Made by a program: the position numbers and the translations under genes. The notes below the pieces were generated by a model. The model had not been told where the DNA came from. It was given only the letters and a program-made list of their open reading frames with translations, and did no database searches. A stretch of 64,000 nucleotides of DNA from a virus: the IMG/VR virus record IMGVR_UViG_3300046779_001754, positions 1-64,000 of that record; one strand, given 5' to 3'. Below, one piece after another: positions 2,559-64,000 of the stretch (position 1 is the first letter of the stretch; every line of letters starts with the position of its first letter).

Positions 2559-3113
2559 ATGAACGTTCTTGCATTAGACATTTCAGGGCTACCACGCAAA
2601 TGGATCAGCTTTGAGGAAGCGATCTTATATCATGCTAAAAATCAAGTCGCTTGGAGTCTAGGCGAGACAGTGGCAACGTTCCGCGGTGGTTATCAACGCG
2701 GCGGCGAGCAAAGCGTTCTAGAAACTCCAAGTATCATTGCTGTAAAAGGACAAGGTTTTAGTTTAAAACGTGCGGGTCGAGTTATCCTGACTAACCGCAC
2801 ATTGTTTGCACGTGATCTGCATGTGTGTGCATATTGCGGCGAACGACATACTACGCCAAATCTAAGTCGTGACCATGTGATTCCCCGGAGTCGCGGTGGT
2901 GAGGATATATGGACCAACGTAGTTACGTCATGTCATCGGTGTAATCATTCCAAAGGAGCTCGTACTCCCGAGGAAGCTCGTTTACACTTACGTTATGTTC
3001 CTTACGAACCTAACCATTACGAGAACTTAATTCTGCAAAATCGTAAGATACTTGCAGATCAAATGGAATACTTACTGGCAGGCGTTCCAAAAAGTTCAAG
3101 ACTATGGCAATAG
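2559..3113 (+). CDS. HNH endonuclease (McrA-like)
   Basis: RD..CAYCG, DHVIPRSRGG..W.NVVTSCHRCN..KG. Confidence 0.92.
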   Translation: MNVLALDISGLPRKWISFEEAILYHAKNQVAWSLGETVATFRGGYQRGGEQSVLETPSIIAVKGQGFSLKRAGRVILTNRTLFARDLHVCAYCGERHTTPNLSRDHVIPRSRGGEDIWTNVVTSCHRCNHSKGARTPEEARLHLRYVPYEPNHYENLILQNRKILADQMEYLLAGVPKSSRLWQ

Positions 3114-3378: not shown

Positions 3379-3454
3379 CCGACCGTGGCCGAATGGATTA
3401 GGCAACAAGCTTCTACCTTGTACCACGTGGGTTCGAATCCTGCCGGTCGGGCCA
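3379..3454 (+). tRNA. tRNA-Arg(TCT)
   Basis: CCGACCG/CGGTCGG acceptor stem, ACAAG-CTTCTAC-CTTGT, CCA. Confidence 0.9.
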
Positions 3455-4750: not shown

Positions 4751-4826
4751 GCTGGCGTAGCACAATTGGCAGTGCAACTGATTTGTAATCAGTAGGTTGA
4801 GGGTTCGATTCCTTTCGCCAGCACCA
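4751..4826 (+). tRNA. tRNA-Thr(TGT)
   Basis: GCTGGCG/CGCCAGC acceptor stem, ACTGA-TTTGTAA-TCAGT, CCA. Confidence 0.95.
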
Positions 4827-4839
4827 AATAAATATTAGT

Positions 4840-4968
4840 ATGGGCACAGAGCAGTTATATTTCATTATTGGATTTTTGCTTGGCACAATACTAACCGGTT
4901 GTATACTAGGTATCAGTTTCATACTATGGCATGAATGGTACTATAGACCAAAAAATATCGAAGAGTAA
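4840..4968 (+). CDS. 42-aa single-pass membrane peptide (not in ORF track)
   Basis: MGTEQLYFIIGFLLGTILTGCILGISFILWHEWYYRPKNIEE; TAATG overlap with next gene; TAAATA upstream. Confidence 0.65.
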   Translation: MGTEQLYFIIGFLLGTILTGCILGISFILWHEWYYRPKNIEE

Positions 4969-5597
4969 TGGGCGCTAGAAATCATCATTTAATAGTTGAC
5001 TATCTAGATCAACTGTCAGGATCAATCGTAGAAATTGGTGCAGGACGCTGTGAAGGCAGCACTGATTTCTTTGCAGGTATTGCTGCATGTAGACCTGATT
5101 TAACCTATCATAGTGTAGACTTTGATCCCGAACCTCACAAGGTCATGGGCAAGTATGCCGTTAAACTACCAAACATGACTGCACATCAAATGCTTGGTGA
5201 GCAGTTCTTAGAAGATATACTAATACCTTCGGGAGAACGTGTGTGTTGGGCGTACCTAGATAATTTTGACTGGATATATTATGCTCCTGAAGATCAACCG
5301 GTGTGGTTACAAAAACAAATCATGAGATACGCACAGTTTGATTTGATCATGAACAATGAAAATAGTCAACGTGCTCATCTAGTACAAACTCAACTCATTG
5401 CTTCTATTGCTGCCGAACGATGTGTGATACACTTTGATGATACTCGTGTTGTTAGAGCTGACCAAGAACAGGGTATTCCTAGAAGCTATGATGGCAAAGG
5501 TGGTACTGCTGTGCCCTGGTTACTGACACAGGGCTGGCGTGTAATACACGGTGACAATTCCAATGTTGCCTGTGCAAATTTTAGTATTGTTGTATGA
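4968..5597 (+). CDS. putative class I SAM-dependent methyltransferase
   Basis: IVEIGAG motif I, YLD and IHFDDT downstream motifs. Confidence 0.6.
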   Translation: MGARNHHLIVDYLDQLSGSIVEIGAGRCEGSTDFFAGIAACRPDLTYHSVDFDPEPHKVMGKYAVKLPNMTAHQMLGEQFLEDILIPSGERVCWAYLDNFDWIYYAPEDQPVWLQKQIMRYAQFDLIMNNENSQRAHLVQTQLIASIAAERCVIHFDDTRVVRADQEQGIPRSYDGKGGTAVPWLLTQGWRVIHGDNSNVACANFSIVV

Positions 5598-5904
5598 AGC
5601 AAACTGAAAAGGGTTCTGGACGTGGGTTCGACTCCCACCTGGTCCACCAAAAGCATTGGGTTCGAACCCCACCGTATGCCAAGGACACCCGAAAGGGACC
5701 AACTTACACTTGCGGACTATATGGTTAGTATGCTTTTGATGGGCCAGACAAGGCTTCGACAGGGTAATGAGTAGGCAAGCAGACAACACGAGAGTCGACT
5801 GACGTAATCAGCGAAACATAGTAACTGCAAACGCAGCTAACGACGAGGTTTTTGCTCTAGCAGCCTAACCTCCGGGGCAGTTATGCCTTGTAACCCAAAA
5901 TAAC
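5584..5904 (+). ncRNA. ssrA: circularly permuted (two-piece) tmRNA; tag (A)ANAANDEVFALAA
   Basis: T-arm plus CTGGTCC-ACCA ends at 5649; intervening segment 5650-5740; 5' acceptor half GGGCCAG at 5741 (G3:U70); tag ORF 5827-5868; outer ends approximate. Confidence 0.9.
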
Positions 5905-5930
5905 AAGCCCGCTTCGGCGGGCTTTTTCTT
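5905..5930 (+). terminator. rho-independent terminator
   Basis: AAGCCCGC-TTCG-GCGGGCTT plus T-run. Confidence 0.9.
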
Positions 5931-10726: not shown

Positions 10727-11545
10727 ATGAAAACATATCGTACCATCTTTATCAGTGACGTTCACTTGGGTACTAAAGATTGCAAAGCCGAAGCTCTCAA
10801 TAATTTTCTAAAACATAACACCTGTGACACGCTGTATCTAGTTGGTGATATAATTGATGCCTGGAAGATAAAACAAAACAAATGGCGTTGGAAGCAAAGT
10901 CATACCAATGTAGTTCGTAGAATTCTAGGACATGCCAAACGCGATACCAGAGTAGTTTATGTACTAGGAAATCACGATGAATTTTTAAGACCATTCCTGC
11001 AGTACAATTTAAATTTTGGTATGGTTGAAATAACCAATCAAATTGAACATATAGGTGCAGATGGCCAACACTATCTAGTTGTACATGGAGATCTGTTTGA
11101 TGGAATCACTAGACTGGCACCATGGTTATCAATGTTAGGAGATCGTGCATATGATTTTATCCTCAGTCTTAACTCTAGATTTAATTGGCTGCGTCATAGG
11201 CTTGGTTTTGGTTATTGGAGTCTTTCTCTTTTTCTTAAGCATAGAGTCAAAAAAGCCGTAGACTTTATATTTCAATTTGAACGTAACTTAGCATTGTATT
11301 GTAAGAAGCGCGGATTTGATGGTGTAATATGCGGACACATACATCATGCAGAAATTAAACTCATAGACGGCGTTGTGTACATGAATGACGGTGACTGGGT
11401 TGAATCAATGACTGCTCTAGTAGAACACCACAGTGGCCGTTGGGAAATTGTAACTTGGATACGGGAGAAGGATGATGTGGTTGATGATATTGATAGCGGT
11501 CAACGCAAGCGATCCAAAGGACATTCCAGCAAAAGTAATGCTTGA
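10727..11545 (+). CDS. PlcP-like metallophosphoesterase (LpxH-like family, P-starvation phospholipase C)
   Basis: SDVHLG, LVGDIID, GNHD, HGDLFD, GHIH, NDGDWVES. Confidence 0.8.
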   Translation: MKTYRTIFISDVHLGTKDCKAEALNNFLKHNTCDTLYLVGDIIDAWKIKQNKWRWKQSHTNVVRRILGHAKRDTRVVYVLGNHDEFLRPFLQYNLNFGMVEITNQIEHIGADGQHYLVVHGDLFDGITRLAPWLSMLGDRAYDFILSLNSRFNWLRHRLGFGYWSLSLFLKHRVKKAVDFIFQFERNLALYCKKRGFDGVICGHIHHAEIKLIDGVVYMNDGDWVESMTALVEHHSGRWEIVTWIREKDDVVDDIDSGQRKRSKGHSSKSNA

Positions 11546-12514: not shown

Positions 12515-13153
12515 ATGCCCCCAAAAATTGCTTTGTTTGTACATCAACCACGATGCTCAGTGCAAAGCATAAACGGTATCATACGAGCTCTAACACCGCA
12601 TTACACGTTTAAAATTTTCACACGTCATGACTTAGAATCTGACTTTTTCAACGACGTTGACATGGTCTGCTTTCCCGGCGGCATAGGTGAATCAGACAGC
12701 TATGATTATCTAATGAAGATTCACGCCCAAAACATACGCAATTACGTGGCATCTGGGGGTAGATATCTAGGTATATGCATGGGAGCGTACTGGGCCGATA
12801 CTGACTATTTCGGTTTGCTTGATAACATTAGAGTAATTCAATATATCAAAAGCCCCGGCACCGATACTCGTAGACCACACGCCAAAGAGATGCCAGTGAG
12901 CTGGCGCGGACACGCAACTTCAATGTATTTTTACGATGGCTGCACCTACAATGGAACTGGTTACTGTGACAGAGTGGCCTGGTATCCCAACGGAGATCCC
13001 ATGGCCATCATACAAGATCGAGTGGGATTGTTGGGTTGTCATCCTGAAGCTGACCAACATTGGTACAATAGTTATACATGGATGCGACGTCGTTGGCATG
13101 GCGGCCGGCACAGTTATTTGCTCGAATTTGTTGACTCCTTGATGCAAAACTGA
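12515..13153 (+). CDS. class I glutamine amidotransferase-like (BPL_N-type) protein
   Basis: FPGG, YLGICMGAY nucleophile elbow, HPE. Confidence 0.8.
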   Translation: MPPKIALFVHQPRCSVQSINGIIRALTPHYTFKIFTRHDLESDFFNDVDMVCFPGGIGESDSYDYLMKIHAQNIRNYVASGGRYLGICMGAYWADTDYFGLLDNIRVIQYIKSPGTDTRRPHAKEMPVSWRGHATSMYFYDGCTYNGTGYCDRVAWYPNGDPMAIIQDRVGLLGCHPEADQHWYNSYTWMRRRWHGGRHSYLLEFVDSLMQN

Positions 13154-13159
13154 TATAAT
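13131..13159 (+). promoter_or_regulatory. sigma70 promoter for the tRNA(CUA) unit
   Basis: TTGACT-17-TATAAT with extended -10 TG. Confidence 0.8.
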
Positions 13160-13167
13160 TACTATAT

Positions 13168-13243
13168 GCGTTAGATGCTAATTGGGAATAGCCGGAGCTT
13201 CTAAACCTCCTTACAGCAGGTTCGAATCCTGTCTAACGCACCA
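13168..13243 (+). tRNA. amber suppressor tRNA (anticodon CTA)
   Basis: GCGTTAG/CTAACGC acceptor stem; GGAGC-TTCTAAA-CCTCC arm centres on CTA (C31:C39 mismatch); T-arm and CCA intact. Confidence 0.75.
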
Positions 13244-13249
13244 GATTTT

Positions 13250-13346
13250 AAGCCGGACCCGTAACCATATTCCGGCTCCGCTGACGCGAAAACGGGATGG
13301 GCTGCGCTCACGGGGTTTGGTAGTTTCCTGACACAAAAATAACTAC
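13250..13346 (+). ncRNA. candidate structured non-coding RNA
   Basis: GC-rich; hairpins AGCCGGA/TCCGGCT, CCG/CGG and GTAGTT/AACTAC, plus possible pseudoknots. Confidence 0.45.
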
Positions 13347-13362
13347 TTTTTAGGAAACCGAA

Positions 13363-13536
13363 GTGCGCTACTTAATAATTTTATTATTATTGGCAGGATG
13401 CTCAAGCAAGTTTGAAGATTGTATTGAGCGTGAAAAAGAAGCATTTAGACAAAGAAATCCCAGTGCTTCGTATGGACTCGTAAACTCCAAGTATCGCGAG
13501 TTCGAAACAGCATGTTCTAACTTTAAAGGAAAATAA
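13363..13536 (+). CDS. 57-aa lipoprotein (not in ORF track)
   Basis: AGGA SD, GTG start, MRYLIILLLLAG-C lipobox. Confidence 0.75.
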   Translation: MRYLIILLLLAGCSSKFEDCIEREKEAFRQRNPSASYGLVNSKYREFETACSNFKGK

Positions 13537-13537
13537 A

Positions 13538-14104
13538 ATGTCATAGATTGAATACGCATGTAGAGACCTAGTGTTTCATTTCAACAAGAAACATCTAGAA
13601 GATAATACCATTCCAATGTGGGTCGTAAAAACACACGGTGAAACTTTTTACGTAGACCACGTCACTGCTTCAATACCATGGAGTACCAAAGAGACTCCAG
13701 ACAACTCCCATACCAAAGGTAGTATCAAGTTCCGAGAATGCTTATTGACCATCAACGGGGACAATGAAGCTGAAATCTCAACCTTGACTATCATTGACAA
13801 GATACGACTACGTAATCAAAAGCTGGGAATTACTAGGATTATTTTTAGCTATGGAAGTAAGTTTCACGAATCTCTAAAACAAAACGAGTTTAAACATTCG
13901 CCATTTAAAAACGTAAGAGGCGGCTGTGGCACTAGTTTTGTAGTTTGTGACTTGTTGAAAAAGGACGAAGCTACATTTGCTACTCTCAAGTACAAAGATG
14001 GTTTTAGAATTATGAAACCCAACGAGACTTACTATCAGGCCTACGATAGTAAAGAAGTGTACATCGACGAGGATGATTATGCCCACGATGAAGACTTTGA
14101 ATAA
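13538..14104 (+). CDS. hypothetical protein with in-frame TAG at codon 3 (readthrough candidate; ORF track starts it at GTG 13571)
   Basis: AAAGGA SD, then ATG TCA TAG ATT GAA TAC GCA TGT AGA GAC CTA GTG..., in frame with the 177-aa ORF. Confidence 0.7.
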
Positions 14105-14113
14105 ATTTTTTCT

Positions 14114-14189
14114 ATTATAGCCATTAAAAAATACCATAGCAAAAACCTATGAAAAACCGTTGACAATAGGTTTTTTAAGGATATATAAT
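14114..14189 (+). promoter_or_regulatory. OxyR/LysR-like box and sigma70 promoter of ahpC
   Basis: ATAG-N7-CTAT at 14136-14150; TTGACA-18-TATAAT 14160-14189; inverted repeat AAAAACCTAT/ATAGGTTTTT. Confidence 0.6.
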
Positions 14190-15797: not shown

Positions 15798-15876
15798 GGG
15801 CCGGAAGCATAAACCTGGTATAGGCGCCCGACTCATAATCGGAAGACAGAGAGTTCAAATCTCTCCCGGCCCACCA
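15798..15876 (+). tRNA. tRNA with CAT anticodon (Ile2-like or elongator Met)
   Basis: GGGCCGG/CCGGCCC acceptor stem, CCGA-CTCATAA-TCGG, CCA. Confidence 0.85.
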
Positions 15877-53576: not shown

Positions 53577-56500
53577 TTAAACTACTCCGCGCAAGAAGAA
53601 AGCTGCTGGATTAATTTGTTCCTGTAACGGTATGCCGTCGCTTGGAGTATTTGGTCCTGGATCGTACCATGACAAAGATCTTAGAACACCAATTGTCACA
53701 ATTACACCTTGTTTTGGTGGTTCGTAGAAAGTAATTCTAACTGGATTTGGTGAGTTTAGAATATACTGTGTTGGGGGTACTGGTATACCACCTATTAGAA
53801 CTCTAAGAGCTTCAGTATATTCGGTACTGTCAATGTCTGTAATATTAACATTTGGTGCTTCAAACACAACATTAGATCCGTTGGCAACAGTATTGGTATG
53901 AACAAATGTATCCTCGTATCCTTGCTCTAAGATACTTTCGCGTCCCATTGATATAACTTCATCGTTGACTTGATGGTCTGCTGCTGCGGTACCAGCAGTT
54001 CCGCGTAGTAGCCCCGACAACGTATTGTTTTCAATGTCACGATAACGATACATGATACGTTCGCCACCAATAGTAACAACTCCCCAGGCGTTTTGAGATA
54101 AGTTTGGTTCACCACAGGCCAGTGCATTTGCAACTTGTACAATGTCATCATCGTAGGCCAGGAATTCTCTAAGTCTAGTAGTGGTTGTTGGTAATATTCT
54201 ATAGGTTGCCTGTACACCACGCATATCCTGGAATATTCTAAATGCCATAGCTGGTGGTACCACACTACCTGTAAACAATGTTGCTACTACAACATCCAAT
54301 GGTCCAATGGTAAAATTCAAAGAAATGTACGAAGTGTAGTTAGACTCAAGGATAGTATAGTGTAATCCATTAAATAGTCTACGCCCGTTCCAGGTCACTA
54401 TCATCCTGTAAGGATTTTGGTTACCGCGGTAGAGGTCAAAATCATTGTATGATATAGTAATACCTTCGCTATAATCATAACTGCCTGGTGCTGATGGCAC
54501 TGATCCAAAGTCAAACGGGAATTCATCATACGCTTCAAAATCAACTCCGCCAACTGACACTGGTCCAACCCAAACTCGCTGAACAATATTTTGCTCGCTA
54601 GTATCATTCCAAGTTGTAACTGCAATAATGTCACCAGGTTGTAAACCAAATGACAACGATGGTCTAAAAGTGATATCGTAGTCAGTACCGTTAAATGCAA
54701 TAACATAATCTGCTCTAGTATTAACACAAACTAAAACATTGTCGTTCACTGCAGGAACATAACTTAACAGTATAGTTCTTGGGCTAAATCCATCCCATGG
54801 AACTACAACAAAATCACTTCCCAAAACCTGTGCAACGTCATTGACATAGACGTGTACTTCATTGTCGGCAATAAGACCTTGGCTAAATCCACCACGTTCA
54901 GGCATTAGGAACTCTGCACTAGAACCATCCCCACTCCATAGAATACCCTGTGATGGTCTTAGTGTGCGTCCGTTTACTTCAACCCACGCATTGTCAATGT
55001 TAGATCCCATCATACTATTGTCTAATGTGTAGGTTAGTTGAGCAGAAAATCCAGTTACTGGTGGTACAACAATATATTGTGTGACTGGTAAACTCCAAGA
55101 ATGCTGTGGAGTTTCAAAGCCCATAGCAGTCAATGTCAGAGCATCATTGCTGGTTAAAATAACGTTGAATCGTATGATTGTTGTAGCAGGACTTATGCCT
55201 TGAACGTATGTATAATCAGTACCGGCTTGCAGTAATTCACCGTTGACAAACATCACTAATTCGTAAATTTCTGCATAGGCAACATCAATTTCAACTTCAA
55301 GTCCTATGTCAGCCCCGTTGTAATTGGCCTGCAGCAATTGATTGCCGCCACCTACTTGATACACAGTGATAACAATGATGTCGTTGGGTGCAACGTTGTT
55401 GTAGACCAACACTGTTCGGTTGACCCAATCAACTGTGAAGTCAATATCAGGTATCAAATCTCTAGCTTGAGTGGCATTGCTTACTTCAACAGCACTGGGA
55501 TAAATTTCTAAGTAGTGTAACGGTCTACCAATATTACTCCAGTCAATTACAGGATTGAGCGGATTCCACTCTGCACGTAGTTGAAGTATAGTAAAGCCAA
55601 AACCAAACCCGCTCCAATCGCTGCCTGGTCGAGTATACACACGCATGTCAAGAGTATCAAATTCTTGTCCTGGTACTAGTTCCTGTGGTGCATGACTTGA
55701 ATAGGTGTCTACAAATGCACCACCGTCAACAATGACATCGCTGGCTCTAGTACCAAGATAAACGTCTAAGAAACTGCTTTCGTATTGTGCATTTAAAATT
55801 GTATCGCTGTAAGTTGGACGACCTTCAGCACCAAATTCAATGTTGTCCCAGGGAGTTACATCAAAAGGGCCATGGTCATATCCAGTGTCGTATTCAAACG
55901 GAACACCGGCAACTTGTACACCAGGGTAATCAACACCGTCAATTAACAGCGGTAATTCACGACCTGGTTGATTCACGCCAGCAACATAATAGCCCATGGT
56001 ACGGTCAACACCGCTTAGATCACCAATGGGCACTAGTACCCAATCAATAGGATCAAATGTTGGAGTGTTAACACCGGTACTGTCTGGGCTATTTGCTGCC
56101 CAAATTTTATCACCGAACCGCACTAATTGTCCGTTGTCAAATGTAATATTTGGTTCCCATTCAACAATATTGGTGTTGTACTCGCAACGGTCAAACTTAA
56201 TTGTTGTTGTAATGCTGCGAACTAGACCATTGGTCATGTAAATTGTTGCTCGAGCTCCAGTGCCATTGCCGCCAGTTATTGTAACTGTAGGAGTGGTAAT
56301 ATATCCTGCGCCAGCGTCAATCACAACAACTTCAATTACTGTGCCCGCTGAATCAATACGAGCCACTGCTGTAGCAGTACGAGCAGCATCACCAATAATA
56401 TTGACAGTTGGCACTGACGTATATCCTGATCCGCCGCTGGTAACAACAATTTGTTCTACAAACAATGTGTAGTTTTGATACCATTGATTCCAGGGCGTGG

Positions 56501-59500
56501 TTTGCCAAATTATGTTGTTGCTGAGCCTATCACTTGGTTCAGTGATTGTAGTAGCTAAAATTGGGCTCACATACTGTGGTGGTGACAATTCTGCATCGTA
56601 GTACGCTGGAACATCAAAGTCAGAAATGTCACCGGCAAAATCGTCAAAGCCGTTATATTTTAGATTGAACTCTCTAATTTGAACATGGTATGGTTTAACC
56701 TCGTTTAGATAATCCAATACAAAGTCTTGATTGTCACGACGATAAATTGGATACGGTAACAATTCTCGAATTGTGTGTTCAACATCAATTAAACTGGTCT
56801 TGAGTAACCACTGTGGTGCTAACTGTTCGGTTAAGATATAGTTAAACATCAAGGTCATCAAGGTATTACGCTCAATTAACAAATCATCAATTAATAGTTC
56901 TTCGTTAATACTTTGAATAATTTTACGAGTTTCAATTTGAGGAGTTTGATCAAAATACTGTGCATCAAACACTTCACCATCAAATCCCAATTTACCAGCA
57001 GCATAGTTCCAAATACCCGATGATATTTGAATAGTTCCGTCTTGCAAACCCACACGCTGCCATCCAGTTGAATCAAGTTGATATAATTCCCACTTGCCTT
57101 GGCTGTTACTGATTACTCGTCCCACTGTGCCCACTGGAACAACTAGTGTAATCAGCTCAGCATAGCTTGCAACTTGAACGCTCGGTGCCGTGGTACGATT
57201 AAACCCTGGAGAATACCAATCAATATAAGTCCAATACTCTTTGGTAACATAACTTTGTACTTTGATAAGAACTAAAATGTGGATGCCCAATGTATTGGCT
57301 TGTACTTCGTATATGGTCCAACGACCGTTGTTGTTACTGTCACTCAACACAAGATACTTGTATCCAACAGGCACAATGACAATATTTTGCCAGCTTAATT
57401 CTTCAAGATTGGCCACTACTTCGTTGTAGTTGCCTGCTGGTGCAGGTATTGGATCTTCACTATTAAGCAATGTCAGAGTGCGACTTTCAGCAATAGGATA
57501 TAAAGAAATAATATTGTTAGTTCTTGTAATGTAATTTTCCAATGCTGTGAAGCGGTTAGTGAACATTGACTGGCGTGGTCTAAATTGCACACCATAACGC
57601 TCGGCTGGGCTTAGATTTGGATCAGGAACTGGGCTACCTTGTGTGTCTACACCACAGAAACTATCTTGCAGTTTTCTATATAGTGTTGGAGTTAAAAAAC
57701 TTCCGGCTCGGCCCTGCGCCAAAAGTTGAAACTCAGTGTGAATATTATCATCATTTATTTGACGATCAAATTCAATGTGGACAATGGTATCATATGCGCT
57801 GAGAAAACTTTCGCAATTATATATGGCAAAACAGCTTGATGTAATTGGCGCCATAAATGGTATGCCGCTGGCAATTGGAGACTCAATATATCTCCCCACA
57901 GATTCAGCACTGAGTGTTTTATTAGCAGCAGTATTCACTGTGGTAATACCACGCACCCAGAAATAATACGACGTGATAAACGCACCCGAAGCATTTATTG
58001 AAGAACCCACTGAGTAACTCACAATTGAATATGGTGTGCCTGGGCCGGTATAATTTGCTGGTGGAACATTACTTTCAATCCACTGATAAATGTCAACACT
58101 GCTACCAGGGAACACTTGCCCCCAGCGCCGACTTGCATACACAATATCATCTTGTCCAGGTTCAACAAAACGAACAGTGGTAGTATCCCACCACATTTGT
58201 CCTACACGACTTGCACCCCAAGAATTGCCTTGATTGTTTATAGAACCGTTGTTGTATCCAGCTGGATCATATGTAGTAATATAATCAATATTTTGACGTG
58301 CTGCCCCAAGGATCTTACCTTGCAATGGATCAAAGAAATCCAAGAATGTAGTCTTGGCACTTTGCAATCTATCATAGAGCGTCACTGAGTTCAATGCATA
58401 GATGTTTACTGCTGGTTCTTCAAAGTGTTTGATGGCCCATGCTGGTGAATCATTGTAGTTCCAGAACACACTCAGTGATCCGTTATTGTTCACTGATGTA
58501 TCAAATGGTGTTCCTGGGGCACCAACAATCAGCGACGTTCCGGTATAATTGACAGATTTACCAAACAGATAATTAGACTGTGCTGCAGAATAGTATATCT
58601 GCTCTCCGTATACATAAGCACCTGGGTTTATTGATGACTCGTTGCTGGCTGGTAGATAATCATACTGATATACTACACCTGACCTTGGAATGTCATCGTA
58701 GAATCCAGTACTGCCCGCATCAAATGTTGTGTCACCGGCATCAAATGTATCTATAACATGGGGTGTACCGTATGGGGCACCAATGATTAATTCTAATCCT
58801 TTAGTGGTAATTGAACTACCAAACTGTGCTCCATCGGTGTTATATGGACTTATCAACGTTTCAATAGACTGATATGGTTCAAAACCCAATAGGTCATAAA
58901 CACTGTTGGCACCAGTACCAATGGCTCCGGGTTTTACAAATAGTTTTTGGTATGGTGTTGCTGCTTGTTTGTTGATCAAATCAATGGTTATTAATCCAGT
59001 TGATGCCGACGATGCTGCAATCACATTGGGAATACCAGCACTGTTAATTGCATCAACAAGACCACTGGGAGTGTTGTTTGGACTGACAGGCACTGCGACT
59101 TCATATCCATTGATGTTTATAGTGCAACCAGCAGTGAAAGACGACGGATGTAAGGTGCTTGAAATAGTACCATATAAACGTGCCTGATCAACTGCAATGT
59201 CTACAATACCTTGTTGCGGATTTGTCACTTGTGCGCCTGGAGCACCAACAATTGCAGCACAATCAAACAGACCATACGAAACGGCATTGCCAAAGAAACC
59301 ATTTTCACTTGCAGTGCTTGGAATAATTTTATCAGTTTGAGCAAAGATATTGGTTTCAATTGTTACAATCTCACCAAGAGTCAAAGGTTGATTAATAGTT
59401 ATGCTTGAAGCAGTCCAAGGATTACCAACATAATTCACTGTAAAAGTATTGGGGATTGATGTTCCCCATTGTGCAGTGTTGTATAGGTATTGATTGTTGA

Positions 59501-62500
59501 CCATCACTGACGGTGGGAATTGCAATGACCCGTTTACTGTAAATGTTGGATTTAAAATCAAATCTGAAGTAACAGTAAACTTTTGAATATTTCTATTAAA
59601 TGTATATGCAGTACCTGCACGTGATGTTCCATCAACTTGTTCGTAAGGACAACCAACAATAACTTCACTACCGTCTGCATTAGTAGCCACTGAGAAACCA
59701 AATTTTGCATTTTGCGCAAGACCACTCACCGACAACTTACCAGCGTATGCATAGTAAGTTCCGGCCGCAGCAAAAATTTCAGCACCGGCTGGGGGAGAGT
59801 TTACAAATACAAGATCATAATCACCTAGAGTACTGTCTGGTAAGCTACTGTCAGACTCTTCCCACTCATAATCAATCTTGGGACGTTGAATAGTACCATT
59901 TACAGTCACAGTAAATGAGTTAATGTTTTGAGCAGTGTATAGATATTGTTGAATAGGAAATCGATCTTGTATTGAAGGTCGAGATCCCGAAACACTAAAC
60001 TCAGTAATTCCGCCAGCAAATGTTGTGTCGTCAACAGTGATATAACAGTTGTCAGTGGGAGTGCTTCCGCCAATTTGAGCACCATAGATAGTTATAACTT
60101 CACCAACGCTAAAATTAAATCCTGGATTCGCTATAGTTGCCGAATACACACCGCGTGTCACATCAATATTGAATTTTGCACTTTCGCCAACTCCGGTCAC
60201 ATGCCCTGGAGGAACGTCCAAATATTGATAGAAATCTAACTGTACCAGTTGACGTCGGTTGATGTAAATGGTTTGATTGGGCCCGGTGAGAGCAGTAAAC
60301 TGGATGTATGAAAGCGTTGCTGTGTAATCAACACCTAGTCTCTGTGGACGATTTTCAATGTAAACATCAAGTTGATCTATTGAATCATACTGAATGCCAG
60401 CTGTACTGTATCTTAGAGTTTGCCCATCTGTACTGTATGTAATAACTTGTGTGGGCACCGGAACTTGTCCGTAGGCATAAACTGCGTTGCTGCCGGGAGC
60501 ACCAACATATAACCAACGCTCATCGGAGCTCATTGCAACACTTCGACCAAAGTCAGCAGGACCTGGTTGATCTAGAGCAATCAACAGTTGAGTATTTTCA
60601 AACGCTTGCAATTCACCGTTGTAGGTAAGAATCGCAGTGTATCCCACAGATCCAAAACTTGTTGGAGCACCAACTGCACCGTAAGTATTCTTACCAATAG
60701 CCAACGACAGTCCATAGCCACTGACAGCAGATGCATTCAAACTCAATGTTGAACCTTCGGCAAATAGACCTAAACTGTTTAGTGCATATTGATAAATGAT
60801 ACCTGTGCTGATGTATGGAGCGGCAGCTAGAACAATGGTGTTGTTGTTTGTTTGTGCAATAGACTCAGTCCAATAGGCATTTGCTGTTCTGGTTGGCAAC
60901 AAGAACTGGTTAAACACCCATGGTTCAGTTTTTTCTAATACTATCCATTGCCCGTCTGAATTTTTATCAATCCATAATAAACTACCAACATTTAGATTGT
61001 CAATGAACGGTAAATTTTTCGCATCACTGGCTTGGCTGACTCTTGAACTTTGTAAAATTAATCCCACACCCTGGCCAACGATGTTAGTAACTGCCTGACC
61101 CACAAATTGGTAGGCAATTGTTATGGTATTGATTGATGGAACTGTGATAACTTTATAAACGCCATTGATCGCTGCATCAAAGAATTTGATGATAATAGTG
61201 TCATTGACTTCTAATTTATGCTGAGTACTGAATGTGACAATGCTGGTTCCATCAAGATTGTCAGCAACTTCTGCAATGTATCCTGGAATATGATTGCATC
61301 GAAAAACTCCCCAATCATAGTCATTTATTTTTGCAATCCAAATATATGTACCAACGCCAATTGCTCCAAGATTAGCATTGATATTGGCACCGTCATTGAT
61401 GTCAAATACCGTGACGTCAACGTCATTTAAATTAACGTAACCAGCACTGGGTAAGTTGACATCAGTGATTTCATGCGGATCAATAGTTGGAAGAATGTTA
61501 GGTGTAGTGATCTTGTAACTTTCTCTCCATAGATCATCAATTAACACGGTCTGATCAGCTTGAGAAAATTCAAAAGGCACAATGACTTGCACAGTACTGG
61601 GGTTTGATGTCAACAATGCTTGATTTAATCGGACATCAAAGAAACTTCGGTTTGCCTGTGCTCCATAAGTTCCTTTGAGCACAGCCCAGTTTTCATAGAC
61701 AACGTAGTCTGCTGCAACGTTTTCAAAGTTTGCGTTACCAAACAAGTCAATACTGTATTTGGTACCTTTGGTACCTAGAAACTGTTGATAGACATTAACC
61801 TGGCTGGCATCACTGAGATTCAACGCAGTCATGTACTCCCTTGGACGGAAACCAATTAGTCCATAACTCAATAGATCTTGATCTCGCTCAAGGTTGGCAG
61901 TGATAATATCATATGACTGACGAATTTGATTGGCTTTGTTGGCAATATTAGGCAACAGGCCTTTTTGTATTTTATTATAGTCACTGATTAACCAATCGTT
62001 GAAATCAAATTCAGCTTTGGGTTGGACAATGTCGGCTGCGCTATAGTAAACATTCTTAAACAGTACAATTTGTCCACGAGTATACTTGACGTTTGGTGAC
62101 CATTCTTCAATATTGTTTTGATTTAAAATAAAGCCTTGTGCATCTAGCTGTCCGTTCCAGTCATCTGTGGTAGCAGCAATCATCAACAGTCGACCTTGAC
62201 GAGCAGCAGTAATTGGATCATAAATTAAATCACCAAACACACTGACATTTTTAAAAACTATGATATGCTCGTAAGCAGTGAACTTGAGATCAATTGAGTT
62301 AATAGTTTGTTCGTTTTGACTTACAATTTTAAACGAATTGTCAAATCTATCAACCACAAGATCTTGCACGTAAATTCTACGACGATTTTGATCTTGAATA
62401 ATAGTTGCTGCGCCACGATCAACAATGCTGTCTACCACAGCATCAGGACGTGTGACCATTAATGTACGTGCTGTTGGGTTAAGATTCACAATACTACCTG

Positions 62501-64000
62501 ATCCCCAACCCTGTGCGCTCCAATACAAAAATTCCTGCGCCATTTGACGCCAGCTTAGAATCATTCCGTTTTCTACGTCGTCAAACACCATGCCACGGCG
62601 AGCAAGTAATTGGCCATAGCTTATGATAAAATCGCATACCGCAGTTTCATTTGAAAACACATAGCCGTAAGGAACTTGTACTATATCGTTGGTATATGTA
62701 ATAGGAACTGTGGCAGATTTGCCACCGGCATAGATTGTTTCTTTTAGACCCGCAGGTTGGCTGATTAATATTTCAAAATATGGACGTTGAACTCCGTAGC
62801 CAAACACGCTATAACCATCATTGACTTTTTGTACAATAATTGAACTGTAAAGTATCTCGCTAAATGGTTGGTTCTTGTATAAGAACAAGTCATAGCCATC
62901 ATCAGGCAGCAACAGACTGGTGTTGACACTATTTGGACTTGGTTTCTCTATGTACATTTTTATGTACTTTTTGTCTGAGAAACTAGCCATACGATATGCC
63001 AGTTGAACGCCAATGGTTTTTAAATTTGCAGCCAATACAGTTGGTGTTTGAGTATTGCCCAGGTATGTGTTGTAATCAACAATCCAGTTAATAAAGCTGG
63101 CTTTGCTTTGGCCTTGTCCGTAGATTTGAATATTGTTGGCATCAACTCTATAACGACCGTTGTATAGATATTGATCTAATTCAGCATCGTACTTGTAGAG
63201 GTCTCGGTCAACAAACAGCGAAAAGAATTCTGCTGGTCGAGTCAAGGCCATTAAACGCATTATGGCAAACGGATAACTTGAGCTGGTTCTCCAGGCGTTT
63301 TCAACTGGACCATCATCGCCAAACTTCCAACTGCGTTGGAATGTGCTAGGAGAATACAAACCCACCACACTGTCAAGTGGCGACACCAAGTTTCCATGCG
63401 CATCCACTGGCAACACTTGTGTGAGTTCGGGTCTAGCGTATTCAGGTAAAATGTATGCACCGGCTGGATCGGCTACACGTCCTAGACTTAGATCATCCCA
63501 TAATACCATGTTACCTGACGTATAAGGTGGAAGACCGTAACGTGATTCCCACCAGTCTGGTTGTGCGGTAAATCCAAGCATCTCCCAAGGAGCCTGAGCT
63601 GGATTATAAGTATCATAGAAGTAGTTGTATATGCCGCGCCAGGCGCCCAGCAATGGTTGCCCGGTTAACTTATTTGAACTCTGACTATAGTTGTAGGTGT
63701 ATGGATTTGACGCAATATATTCCTGAGCAGCATAGTCAATCTTATTGGTTGCAACCCACGTTAGAAAATCAGCTGACAGGATACCATTAACTTCAGCAAG
63801 ACTGTATTCAGTTGTACGGAACTGTCCAGGGATGATGTCAGTGACCTTGATTGGTATTTCACTGTGTACTTTTAAATTATCGTAAATTCTTGTTTCAAAT
63901 TCTAATAGAATATCGTCGCGAATATCGTTGAATGCCACAGTGATGCTGCCGTCGTGACCACGTATAACTGTAGTTGGCTCAATATAGGTTTCGTCAACAT
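53577..64000 (-). CDS. giant virion protein (baseplate/tail; >3450 aa, 5'-truncated)
   Basis: Frame open to the window end; FG-GAP-like repeats, W.P...Y..G..V repeats, EVKPYH baseplate-like motif. Confidence 0.8.
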   Translation of the reverse strand, partial: VDETYIEPTTVIRGHDGSITVAFNDIRDDILLEFETRIYDNLKVHSEIPIKVTDIIPGQFRTTEYSLAEVNGILSADFLTWVATNKIDYAAQEYIASNPYTYNYSQSSNKLTGQPLLGAWRGIYNYFYDTYNPAQAPWEMLGFTAQPDWWESRYGLPPYTSGNMVLWDDLSLGRVADPAGAYILPEYARPELTQVLPVDAHGNLVSPLDSVVGLYSPSTFQRSWKFGDDGPVENAWRTSSSYPFAIMRLMALTRPAEFFSLFVDRDLYKYDAELDQYLYNGRYRVDANNIQIYGQGQSKASFINWIVDYNTYLGNTQTPTVLAANLKTIGVQLAYRMASFSDKKYIKMYIEKPSPNSVNTSLLLPDDGYDLFLYKNQPFSEILYSSIIVQKVNDGYSVFGYGVQRPYFEILISQPAGLKETIYAGGKSATVPITYTNDIVQVPYGYVFSNETAVCDFIISYGQLLARRGMVFDDVENGMILSWRQMAQEFLYWSAQGWGSGSIVNLNPTARTLMVTRPDAVVDSIVDRGAATIIQDQNRRRIYVQDLVVDRFDNSFKIVSQNEQTINSIDLKFTAYEHIIVFKNVSVFGDLIYDPITAARQGRLLMIAATTDDWNGQLDAQGFILNQNNIEEWSPNVKYTRGQIVLFKNVYYSAADIVQPKAEFDFNDWLISDYNKIQKGLLPNIANKANQIRQSYDIITANLERDQDLLSYGLIGFRPREYMTALNLSDASQVNVYQQFLGTKGTKYSIDLFGNANFENVAADYVVYENWAVLKGTYGAQANRSFFDVRLNQALLTSNPSTVQVIVPFEFSQADQTVLIDDLWRESYKITTPNILPTIDPHEITDVNLPSAGYVNLNDVDVTVFDINDGANINANLGAIGVGTYIWIAKINDYDWGVFRCNHIPGYIAEVADNLDGTSIVTFSTQHKLEVNDTIIIKFFDAAINGVYKVITVPSINTITIAYQFVGQAVTNIVGQGVGLILQSSRVSQASDAKNLPFIDNLNVGSLLWIDKNSDGQWIVLEKTEPWVFNQFLLPTRTANAYWTESIAQTNNNTIVLAAAPYISTGIIYQYALNSLGLFAEGSTLSLNASAVSGYGLSLAIGKNTYGAVGAPTSFGSVGYTAILTYNGELQAFENTQLLIALDQPGPADFGRSVAMSSDERWLYVGAPGSNAVYAYGQVPVPTQVITYSTDGQTLRYSTAGIQYDSIDQLDVYIENRPQRLGVDYTATLSYIQFTALTGPNQTIYINRRQLVQLDFYQYLDVPPGHVTGVGESAKFNIDVTRGVYSATIANPGFNFSVGEVITIYGAQIGGSTPTDNCYITVDDTTFAGGITEFSVSGSRPSIQDRFPIQQYLYTAQNINSFTVTVNGTIQRPKIDYEWEESDSSLPDSTLGDYDLVFVNSPPAGAEIFAAAGTYYAYAGKLSVSGLAQNAKFGFSVATNADGSEVIVGCPYEQVDGTSRAGTAYTFNRNIQKFTVTSDLILNPTFTVNGSLQFPPSVMVNNQYLYNTAQWGTSIPNTFTVNYVGNPWTASSITINQPLTLGEIVTIETNIFAQTDKIIPSTASENGFFGNAVSYGLFDCAAIVGAPGAQVTNPQQGIVDIAVDQARLYGTISSTLHPSSFTAGCTININGYEVAVPVSPNNTPSGLVDAINSAGIPNVIAASSASTGLITIDLINKQAATPYQKLFVKPGAIGTGANSVYDLLGFEPYQSIETLISPYNTDGAQFGSSITTKGLELIIGAPYGTPHVIDTFDAGDTTFDAGSTGFYDDIPRSGVVYQYDYLPASNESSINPGAYVYGEQIYYSAAQSNYLFGKSVNYTGTSLIVGAPGTPFDTSVNNNGSLSVFWNYNDSPAWAIKHFEEPAVNIYALNSVTLYDRLQSAKTTFLDFFDPLQGKILGAARQNIDYITTYDPAGYNNGSINNQGNSWGASRVGQMWWDTTTVRFVEPGQDDIVYASRRWGQVFPGSSVDIYQWIESNVPPANYTGPGTPYSIVSYSVGSSINASGAFITSYYFWVRGITTVNTAANKTLSAESVGRYIESPIASGIPFMAPITSSCFAIYNCESFLSAYDTIVHIEFDRQINDDNIHTEFQLLAQGRAGSFLTPTLYRKLQDSFCGVDTQGSPVPDPNLSPAERYGVQFRPRQSMFTNRFTALENYITRTNNIISLYPIAESRTLTLLNSEDPIPAPAGNYNEVVANLEELSWQNIVIVPVGYKYLVLSDSNNNGRWTIYEVQANTLGIHILVLIKVQSYVTKEYWTYIDWYSPGFNRTTAPSVQVASYAELITLVVPVGTVGRVISNSQGKWELYQLDSTGWQRVGLQDGTIQISSGIWNYAAGKLGFDGEVFDAQYFDQTPQIETRKIIQSINEELLIDDLLIERNTLMTLMFNYILTEQLAPQWLLKTSLIDVEHTIRELLPYPIYRRDNQDFVLDYLNEVKPYHVQIREFNLKYNGFDDFAGDISDFDVPAYYDAELSPPQYVSPILATTITEPSDRLSNNIIWQTTPWNQWYQNYTLFVEQIVVTSGGSGYTSVPTVNIIGDAARTATAVARIDSAGTVIEVVVIDAGAGYITTPTVTITGGNGTGARATIYMTNGLVRSITTTIKFDRCEYNTNIVEWEPNITFDNGQLVRFGDKIWAANSPDSTGVNTPTFDPIDWVLVPIGDLSGVDRTMGYYVAGVNQPGRELPLLIDGVDYPGVQVAGVPFEYDTGYDHGPFDVTPWDNIEFGAEGRPTYSDTILNAQYESSFLDVYLGTRASDVIVDGGAFVDTYSSHAPQELVPGQEFDTLDMRVYTRPGSDWSGFGFGFTILQLRAEWNPLNPVIDWSNIGRPLHYLEIYPSAVEVSNATQARDLIPDIDFTVDWVNRTVLVYNNVAPNDIIVITVYQVGGGNQLLQANYNGADIGLEVEIDVAYAEIYELVMFVNGELLQAGTDYTYVQGISPATTIIRFNVILTSNDALTLTAMGFETPQHSWSLPVTQYIVVPPVTGFSAQLTYTLDNSMMGSNIDNAWVEVNGRTLRPSQGILWSGDGSSAEFLMPERGGFSQGLIADNEVHVYVNDVAQVLGSDFVVVPWDGFSPRTILLSYVPAVNDNVLVCVNTRADYVIAFNGTDYDITFRPSLSFGLQPGDIIAVTTWNDTSEQNIVQRVWVGPVSVGGVDFEAYDEFPFDFGSVPSAPGSYDYSEGITISYNDFDLYRGNQNPYRMIVTWNGRRLFNGLHYTILESNYTSYISLNFTIGPLDVVVATLFTGSVVPPAMAFRIFQDMRGVQATYRILPTTTTRLREFLAYDDDIVQVANALACGEPNLSQNAWGVVTIGGERIMYRYRDIENNTLSGLLRGTAGTAAADHQVNDEVISMGRESILEQGYEDTFVHTNTVANGSNVVFEAPNVNITDIDSTEYTEALRVLIGGIPVPPTQYILNSPNPVRITFYEPPKQGVIVTIGVLRSLSWYDPGPNTPSDGIPLQEQINPAAFFLRGVV

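Follow-up and report, generated by a model that had tools for sequence, protein, structure and literature searches.

A phage amber-suppressor tRNA adjoining a conserved gene with UAG as its third codon: a candidate single-gene translational gate

The DNA described here, hereafter the window, comprises positions 1 to 64,000 (64,000 nucleotides) of the IMG/VR virus record IMGVR_UViG_3300046779_001754 and forms part of a 100,171-bp viral contig of a large freshwater phage, for which CheckV gave a completeness of about 17%. The window contains a two-part cassette composed of a promoter-driven amber-suppressor tRNA, tRNA(CUA), and a gene whose third codon is UAG. Based on the sequence comparisons below, we propose, with a probability of roughly 0.8, that the protein encoded by this gene would be made only when the UAG is suppressed.

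Anatomy of the cassette

The elements of the cassette and the features interspersed among them are collected in Table 1. An earlier note, made from the letters of this DNA, had described a strong TTGACT-17-TATAAT promoter followed by a tRNA whose anticodon arm centres on CUA, a structured RNA and a lipoprotein, and behind these an AAAGGA motif with ATG TCA TAG in frame with an ORF whose start at GTG 13571 lacked a good Shine–Dalgarno sequence; all of these elements were recovered in the present analysis. The promoter stops 9 nt 5' of the tRNA, and the next strong promoter on the same strand is found at 14160-14189. The ORF behind the UAG is in frame with both ATG 13538 and GTG 13571, the latter without a ribosome-binding site, and ends at the stop codon 14102-14104. 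Since there is one promoter and a terminator scan from this promoter to position 14104 found none, the tRNA and the gated gene are likely to be co-transcribed. In many relatives, where the small lipoprotein ORF that separates the two elements in this lineage is missing, the tRNA ends a mere 24-55 nt short of the TAG, a gap too small to hold a second promoter. The possible terminator behind the gene was left unflagged by the scan because its loop measures 15 nt.

Conservation of the leader-UAG layout and linkage to tRNA(CUA)

Four scans of IMG/VR provided 130 distinct homologous genes, in 121 of which a ribosome-binding site, an ATG, a short leader and a TAG occur at the same position. The same layout was found in 21 of the 56 distinct single-domain relatives obtained in a fifth scan, so that about 140 distinct relatives have it, as well as in all three contigs matched in a search of 185,579 prokaryote genomes. 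As these three matches were the only ones among the prokaryote genomes, each on a short contig of a metagenome-assembled genome (MAG), the protein family is in effect restricted to phages. The analysis of 115 distinct leader contexts revealed a ribosome-binding site and an in-frame ATG in every one of them, and leaders of 2-9 codons (counting the ATG) that differ in sequence (MS, MA, MK, ML, MTQQ and others). The stop codon closing the leader was always TAG and never TAA or TGA in the ~140 distinct sequences, though TAA ends 54 of the 89 genes of the 100-kb contig. The base after the UAG was also constrained, being A in 109 and G in 6 of the 115 contexts, and such an invariable purine fits the contexts that favour amber suppression and weaken termination in E. 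coli.

The linkage between the UAG-bearing genes and the tRNA was strong. About 77 of the 90 loci with full flanks had a same-strand tRNA(CUA) no more than 3 kb away, and three more had one at 3.7-8.5 kb, so that the co-occurrence of TAG and tRNA(CUA) in related phages, which the earlier note had suggested looking for, is borne out. The layout is also present in a cultured phage. A tblastn search of cultured phages produced a match at an unannotated place of the Rhizobium phage RHph_I1_18 genome (L003 1477-1725, i.e., MN988519.1 ~11003-11248, minus strand), where a ribosome-binding site and ATG AGT GAG TTC ATG TAG are followed by homologous sequence, and where a tRNA(CUA) begins 12 nt past the gated gene. 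The lack of this gene in the GenBank annotation is presumably due to its in-frame TAG.

The tRNA is genuine and of elongator type

ARAGORN returned 12 tRNAs and a two-piece transfer-messenger RNA (tmRNA), and reported the tRNA at 13168-13243 as a molecule of 76 nt with the anticodon CTA. Rfam RF00005 matched the same region with 45.2 bits against a cut-off of 29, placing CUA at 34-36 between U33 and A37. The separate tRNA-Arg(TCT) that the earlier note had placed at 3379 is likewise present (3379-3454, ARAGORN). We collected 85 distinct tRNA(CUA) sequences adjoining homologs, 57 of which constitute the alignment used here (A4); a covariance model derived from the tRNA(CUA) alignment recovered copies missed by ARAGORN in addition to the copies lying 3.7-8.5 kb off on long contigs. 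Across the 57 sequences the string U33-C34-U35-A36-A37 is invariant and A73 nearly so, G1:C72 is found in 56, the anticodon stem is variable, and 17 of the 19 base pairs exhibit compensatory changes. Judged by this substitution pattern, tRNA(CUA) is genuine and under selection. Elongator tRNAs differ from initiators by the pairing of position 1 with 72 and the lack of a triple G:C run at the foot of the anticodon stem, and tRNA(CUA) exhibits these elongator features along with those of an amber anticodon, namely CUA flanked by U33 and a purine at 37.

The label "tRNA-Pyl" assigned by ARAGORN results from the CUA anticodon alone. Pyrrolysine tRNAs have a 6-bp anticodon stem and a 3-nt variable loop and lack both G18G19 and the T-psi-C sequence. 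A tRNA of this type was rejected here, given the canonical GG in the D-loop, the T-loop GGTTCGAAT and a variable loop of 4-5 nt; general scans of the neighbouring genes, not aimed at pylS or pylBCD, turned up no match to them. The acceptor features of tRNA(CUA), comprising G1:C72, mostly C2:G71, A73 and a short variable loop, are at odds with the recognition rules of E. coli GlnRS, and we infer that lysine or leucine is a likelier cargo than glutamine. Although Q stands at the UAG position in three database proteins (P0001, P0003 and P0025), a close relative (L092) reads TAG in its DNA at this point, so that the residue was probably introduced by a gene caller using code 15 and is no evidence for Gln.

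Two further tRNAs deserve description next to this family. Of the pair of tRNAs at 4766-4843 and 10911-10988 in RHph_I1_18 (L242, MN988519.1), the one annotated as Leu(taa) differs from bacterial tRNA-Leu by the shortness of its variable arm, and has the entire T arm in common with tRNA(CUA), at 73% overall identity. They may be paralogs, a hint that the suppressor arose from a Leu-type tRNA. In another relative (L027, 2540-2608), a 69-nt tRNA-like sequence with a CUCUAAA loop and a much reduced D arm is located ~330 nt 5' of a TAG-free short form of the gene.

The UAG is real and the codons behind it are coding

The check for sequence error that the earlier note had recommended indicated that the TAG is neither an error nor private to this phage. 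Contigs of two independent DNA runs, from different studies and metagenomes, cover the UAG without a variant, nearby differences being synonymous or conservative, and a contig from an RNA library is identical across 13332-13601. In tblastn comparisons, the similarity among relatives begins at residue 1 after the UAG, that is, at the codon directly behind it and not at the VFHFNK position, in agreement with the extended homology foreseen by the earlier note. The variation in this region is mainly found at third positions (ATT/ATC, TAC/TAT, GCA/GCT/GCG, TGT/TGC). Residues 2-12 past the UAG comprise the first β-strand of the AlphaFold model with a predicted local distance difference test score (pLDDT) above 90 (mean of 83 for the whole protein, and of 95.6 for the N-terminal domain alone). 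Furthermore, many relatives have no ordinary start (ATG, GTG or TTG) available, RHph_I1_18 having none for 23 codons past the TAG, and the codon matching GTG 13571 is GTC in many of them. By these patterns of substitution, the codons directly after the UAG evolve as coding sequence.

A single candidate target in genomes using the standard code

As the 100-kb contig is a fragment, the genetic code was also examined in a complete relative of 363,943 bp bearing the same cassette. Standard-code ORFs cover 95% of the contig, in which TAG ends five credible genes among 89 called ORFs, each with a short extension beyond. These include dnaK (637-2511), the HNH gene (2559-3113) and a carbamoyltransferase gene, the first two of which the earlier note had correctly taken as terminated by TAG. 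The layout of ribosome-binding site, ATG, short leader and TAG was observed in one gene only across the contig. The complete relative is 94% coding under the standard code, with 244 TAA, 147 TGA and 33 TAG stops. None of its TAG-ending genes has an in-frame extension of at least 60 codons, versus 26 of those ending in TAA and 5 of those ending in TGA, and the leader-TAG layout is limited to the family gene, one spurious case aside, the corresponding TAA and TGA leader controls giving 0 and 0. No other case was detected in the first 100 kb of RHph_I1_18. There is neither a large share of genes with in-frame TAG, as code 15 would entail, nor a loss of TAG as a terminator, and the single-gene switch that the earlier note had preferred to genome-wide recoding holds for both the 100-kb contig and the complete 364-kb relative.

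Family members without the UAG

Members of the family that lack the TAG carry an initiator ATG exactly at its position (e.g., ATG GTT GAA TTA GCA TGT), and are nested among the TAG-bearing ones on the family tree, which requires 2-5 state changes. Even so, tRNA(CUA) is found nearby in eight of the nine TAG-free two-domain genes and in 28 of the 35 TAG-free short forms, an adjacency that is new here. The retention of the tRNA by TAG-free members suggests that the linkage belongs to the protein family and runs deeper than a switch placed on an arbitrary gene.

Proposed mechanism and alternative explanations

Under the proposed mechanism, ribosomes would start at the ATG with its good ribosome-binding site, incorporate Met-Ser and encounter the UAG. 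If release factor 1 wins there, a dipeptide would be the only product; if the charged phage tRNA(CUA) wins, translation would continue in frame to give the 188-residue protein. The amount of protein would then be set by the activity of the promoter and by the level of processed, charged suppressor tRNA relative to release factor 1, the whole behaving as a coherent feed-forward (AND) gate that would delay expression and damp leak. The UAG appears to be placed where any residue would be tolerated, its position being taken by the initiator Met in TAG-free relatives, and a failed read would be nearly free. If the protein works with the suppressor tRNA or on UAG decoding, the UAG in its own message could additionally report on how active the suppressor is, in a prfB-like fashion.

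A number of observations weigh against this proposal. About ten loci with full flanks had no tRNA(CUA) in the DNA examined. The TAG-free relatives keep the tRNA, so that gating this gene would not be its sole role. TAG ends ~6-8% of the phage genes, which exhibit no shorter extensions and no extra back-up stops behind them, and an efficient suppressor would consequently lengthen those proteins. The RNA-library contig counts for little, because RNA libraries can contain DNA and the contigs are short and of low depth, and the 100-kb contig represents a small part of its genome. Lastly, the codon after the UAG is ATT, ATC or ATA in 106 of the 115 contexts (92%), all of which allow weak initiation, AUU being used in this way in the bacterial gene infC. 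This would suit a model in which ATG-TCA-TAG is a two-codon regulatory ORF and ribosomes restart at the adjacent AUU without any suppression, the tRNA being at most a modulator, and the initiator ATG of TAG-free relatives at exactly the UAG position agrees with it as well. Any stop codon would serve for such a mini-ORF, yet all of the ~140 sequences have TAG despite a divergence to ~40% protein identity. Moreover, codons that are no starts follow the UAG in ~8-10% of the relatives (GTA, GTT, AAC or AAA in the contexts analyzed, with AAG also seen among relatives), and the tight linkage to tRNA(CUA) would be left unexplained. We consider re-initiation improbable on these grounds.

The low completeness of the contig would also leave room for a partial recoding, in which a group of genes in the remaining part of the genome, for instance late ones, would have TAG as a sense codon. 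There is ample precedent for recoded phages that carry suppressor tRNAs (bioRxiv 10.1101/2021.08.26.457843). The coverage of both the contig and the complete relative by standard-code ORFs, the 33 TAG-ended genes of the latter without long extensions, its lone leader-TAG gene and the lack of another case in the first 100 kb of RHph_I1_18 render this very unlikely. Still less credible is an ordinary gene starting at GTG 13571 or at a later ATG behind a meaningless ATG-TCA-TAG. Many database entries do have the protein begin, as set by gene callers, at the GTG or at the methionine of IPMW, but homology, purifying selection and the first β-strand all reach up to the codon after the TAG, and the GTG, besides lacking a ribosome-binding site, is replaced by GTC in many relatives. 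As for a nonsense mutation, a pseudogene or an assembly error, the presence of a stop codon is all that speaks for them, and the recurrence of the TAG at the same position in ~140 distinct sequences and in independent runs, with an intact and conserved frame behind it, refutes them. Gated expression by suppression of the UAG thus remains the reading that we favour.

The gated protein and its possible function

Searches of Pfam, PHROGs, NCBIfam and PADLOC gave no match for the gated protein, nor did a profile search of PDB sequences, and the ESM Atlas had no match of 0.9 or more. The PDB contains no structural relative of the N-terminal domain (Foldseek E >0.7, best VIA Z 3.4), and for the C-terminal domain solely a generic ferredoxin-like fold was recovered (Z ~6). 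The N-terminal domain also occurs by itself, as the C-terminal half of proteins from the jumbo phages Phosso and Atu_ph07 and, in some phages, in fusion with the peptidyl-tRNA hydrolase Pth2 (P0066; Pfam PF01981, E 1.6e-7). In Phosso, a gene for peptidyl-tRNA hydrolase is located two genes 5' of the homolog. The metallophosphatase encoded in the window proved unrelated to that beside the Phosso homolog. The tRNA aside, no conserved neighbour gene was detected, the commonest neighbours being a zinc-ribbon protein, AhpC and AhpD in 14-21 of 74 loci, and genes for Pth2 and RF-1-domain proteins were inconsistently present across the relatives checked.

The association with tRNA(CUA) with or without the UAG, together with the Pth2 fusion, indicates that the protein may act with the suppressor tRNA or on the decoding of UAG, and it looks like a partner of the suppressor tRNA and not an arbitrary cargo. 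A more specific and tentative idea, which we think less likely than not, would make it a co-factor or regulator devoted to the amber-suppressor tRNAs of phages, with its own UAG closing an autoregulatory loop. It might shift the balance between tRNA and release factor 1 at UAG, or handle peptidyl-tRNA released there. If so, the cassette would constitute a self-tuning natural suppression system with a prfB-like logic, built on a domain without a known fold.

Two other genes may be mentioned in this context. The 364-kb relative (L345) encodes, beside a large tRNA array, a small ArfB-like protein consisting of an RF-1 domain only (G004:C1:231273-231590, minus strand; PF00472, 70 bits), which was not found in the other relatives checked. 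The gene upstream of the tRNA (12515-13153), which carries the tRNA promoter in its 3' end, encodes a BPL_N/class-I glutamine-amidotransferase-like domain, and a homolog of it accompanies the cassette in 5 of the 74 representative loci.

The structured RNA and other features of the region

Table 1. Features of the cassette and of the DNA interspersed with it (window coordinates)
Feature	Position	Strand	Remarks
Sigma-70-type promoter, TTGACT-17-TATAAT with TG extension	13131-13159	+	11/12 matches; within 3' end of upstream gene
Amber-suppressor tRNA, anticodon CUA, elongator type	13168-13243	+	G1:C72, A73, encoded CCA; ARAGORN, Rfam
Conserved structured RNA	13252-13346	+	Paired cells 100% in 10 relatives; no Rfam match
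Helices of structured RNA	P1 13252-13257/13271-13276; P2 13277-13280/13311-13314; P2a 13285-13288/13303-13306; last hairpin 13320-13323/13343-13346		
Pseudoknot of structured RNA	13258-13262/13292-13296	+	Supported by covariation
Small lipoprotein ORF, 57 aa	13363-13536	+	Lipobox LLAGC; between tRNA and gated gene in this lineage
Ribosome-binding site AAAGGA	13525-13530	+	7 nt 5' of ATG
Leader codons ATG TCA (Met-Ser)	13538-13543	+	Leaders vary among relatives
In-frame UAG, putative gating codon	13544-13546	+	Followed by ATT GAA TAC GCA TGT
Gated gene body, 185 codons and TAA	13547-14104	+	N-terminal all-β domain ~13547-13807, ferredoxin-like domain ~13820-14062, acidic tail
Possible terminator, stem AACCTAT/ATAGGTT then T run	14144-14177	+	Read from the sequence, inferred; overlaps next promoter

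The structured RNA between the tRNA and the lipoprotein ORF exhibits three compensatory pairs among 10 relatives, distributed over three helices of which the pseudoknot is one. As it occurs in only 4 of 75 representative loci, we rejected it as a general part of the cassette. Its sequence is 92-99% identical across relatives whose proteins share only 67-75% identity, and in several relatives it stands directly 5' of the gated gene and well away from the tRNA. Its depth in metagenomes is 5-10x that of its flanks, it is joined there to varied flanking sequences and it is present in RNA libraries, which suggests that it also occurs in other contexts. Theta/HDV-like ribozymes have been reported next to suppressor tRNAs, with a cleavage site at most 5 nt from the tRNA 3' end and a nested double-pseudoknot core (PMC10879173). 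The structured RNA described here starts 9 nt past the CCA of the tRNA, and the Rfam search, the one search made, gave no HDV-type match. Homologs of the lipoprotein ORF were found in two relatives (L005 and L006). In the same two, the freshwater-2 RNA motif (RF02980, 70-78 bits) lies just 5' of the tRNA(CUA) promoter region (L005 2479-2559 and L006 2481-2561, minus strand), and the Rfam search yielded no copy of this motif in the window.

Elsewhere in the window, a tRNA with the anticodon CAU (15798-15876) was missed by ARAGORN and detected with 49 bits by Rfam and 50 bits by our own tRNA model, with a TATAAT-like box just 5' of it. The two-piece (permuted) tmRNA (5537-5927) is of the betaproteobacterial type (RF01850 121.6 bits, RF04321 118.3 bits), and a tmRNA lies within 1-1.5 kb of the gated gene in several relatives. 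An ORF of more than 3,450 codons (53577-63998, minus strand) runs past the end of the window.

Comparison with known systems

A stop codon that senses its own decoding is known from prfB, the gene of release factor 2, where an early in-frame UGA is bypassed by a +1 frameshift and the product is itself a release factor. The cassette has in common with prfB the early in-frame stop as a sensor of its own decoding; it differs in that the frame would be left unchanged, a dedicated tRNA would read the stop, and the action of the product on UAG decoding is inferred. The readthrough that yields Q-beta A1 and retroviral gag-pol relies on near-cognate tRNAs of the host at a stop placed at the end of a complete protein, giving two products. 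Here, too, a stop would be read as sense in a regulated fraction of events, whereas the virus supplies the cognate tRNA and the stop precedes the whole protein, which would turn the outcome into all or nothing.

A search of the literature found no paper in which the expression of just one gene depends on a suppressor tRNA encoded by the same phage. The Xanthomonas phage XacN1, a jumbo phage using the standard code, has CUA suppressor tRNAs without a findable target (PMC5852040), and Atu_ph07 has an opal suppressor tRNA (PMC6102473). Our phage resembles XacN1 as a large standard-code phage with tRNA(CUA), and differs from it in having a probable target, which lies at the 5' end of a gene and would be missed by a search for C-terminal readthrough; no homolog of the gated protein was found in XacN1. 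For such "orphan" suppressor tRNAs, the probable target seen here is a stop placed at the start of a gene instead of the end. The same layout poses a problem for annotation, as gene callers truncate or miss the gated gene, and the gene itself defines a new phage-restricted, tRNA-linked protein family that may act on UAG decoding.

In the recoded phages (crAss-like, Lak, Garnet and Topaz, with TAG read as Gln under code 15), in-frame stops occur in 26-71% of the genes and standard-code gene calls are fragmented (bioRxiv 10.1101/2021.08.26.457843). The cassette would share with them an in-frame UAG read by a phage tRNA(CUA) in a host using the standard code, for which the authors of that work propose a timing device, while the present case is confined to a single gene whose one UAG keeps a constant place near the N-terminus, and TAG continues to end 6-8% of the genes. 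It could be an early step toward recoding, of which a gate of this kind is a plausible first stage, or an independent use of the same tool. An engineered suppressor-tRNA circuit in E. coli is a coherent feed-forward loop that damps leaky expression (PMC7969014). Its logic of a suppressor tRNA and a dependent target is that of the cassette, which by contrast would be a natural, single-codon translational gate kept in more than 100 phage lineages, with a target protein that is itself linked to the tRNA.

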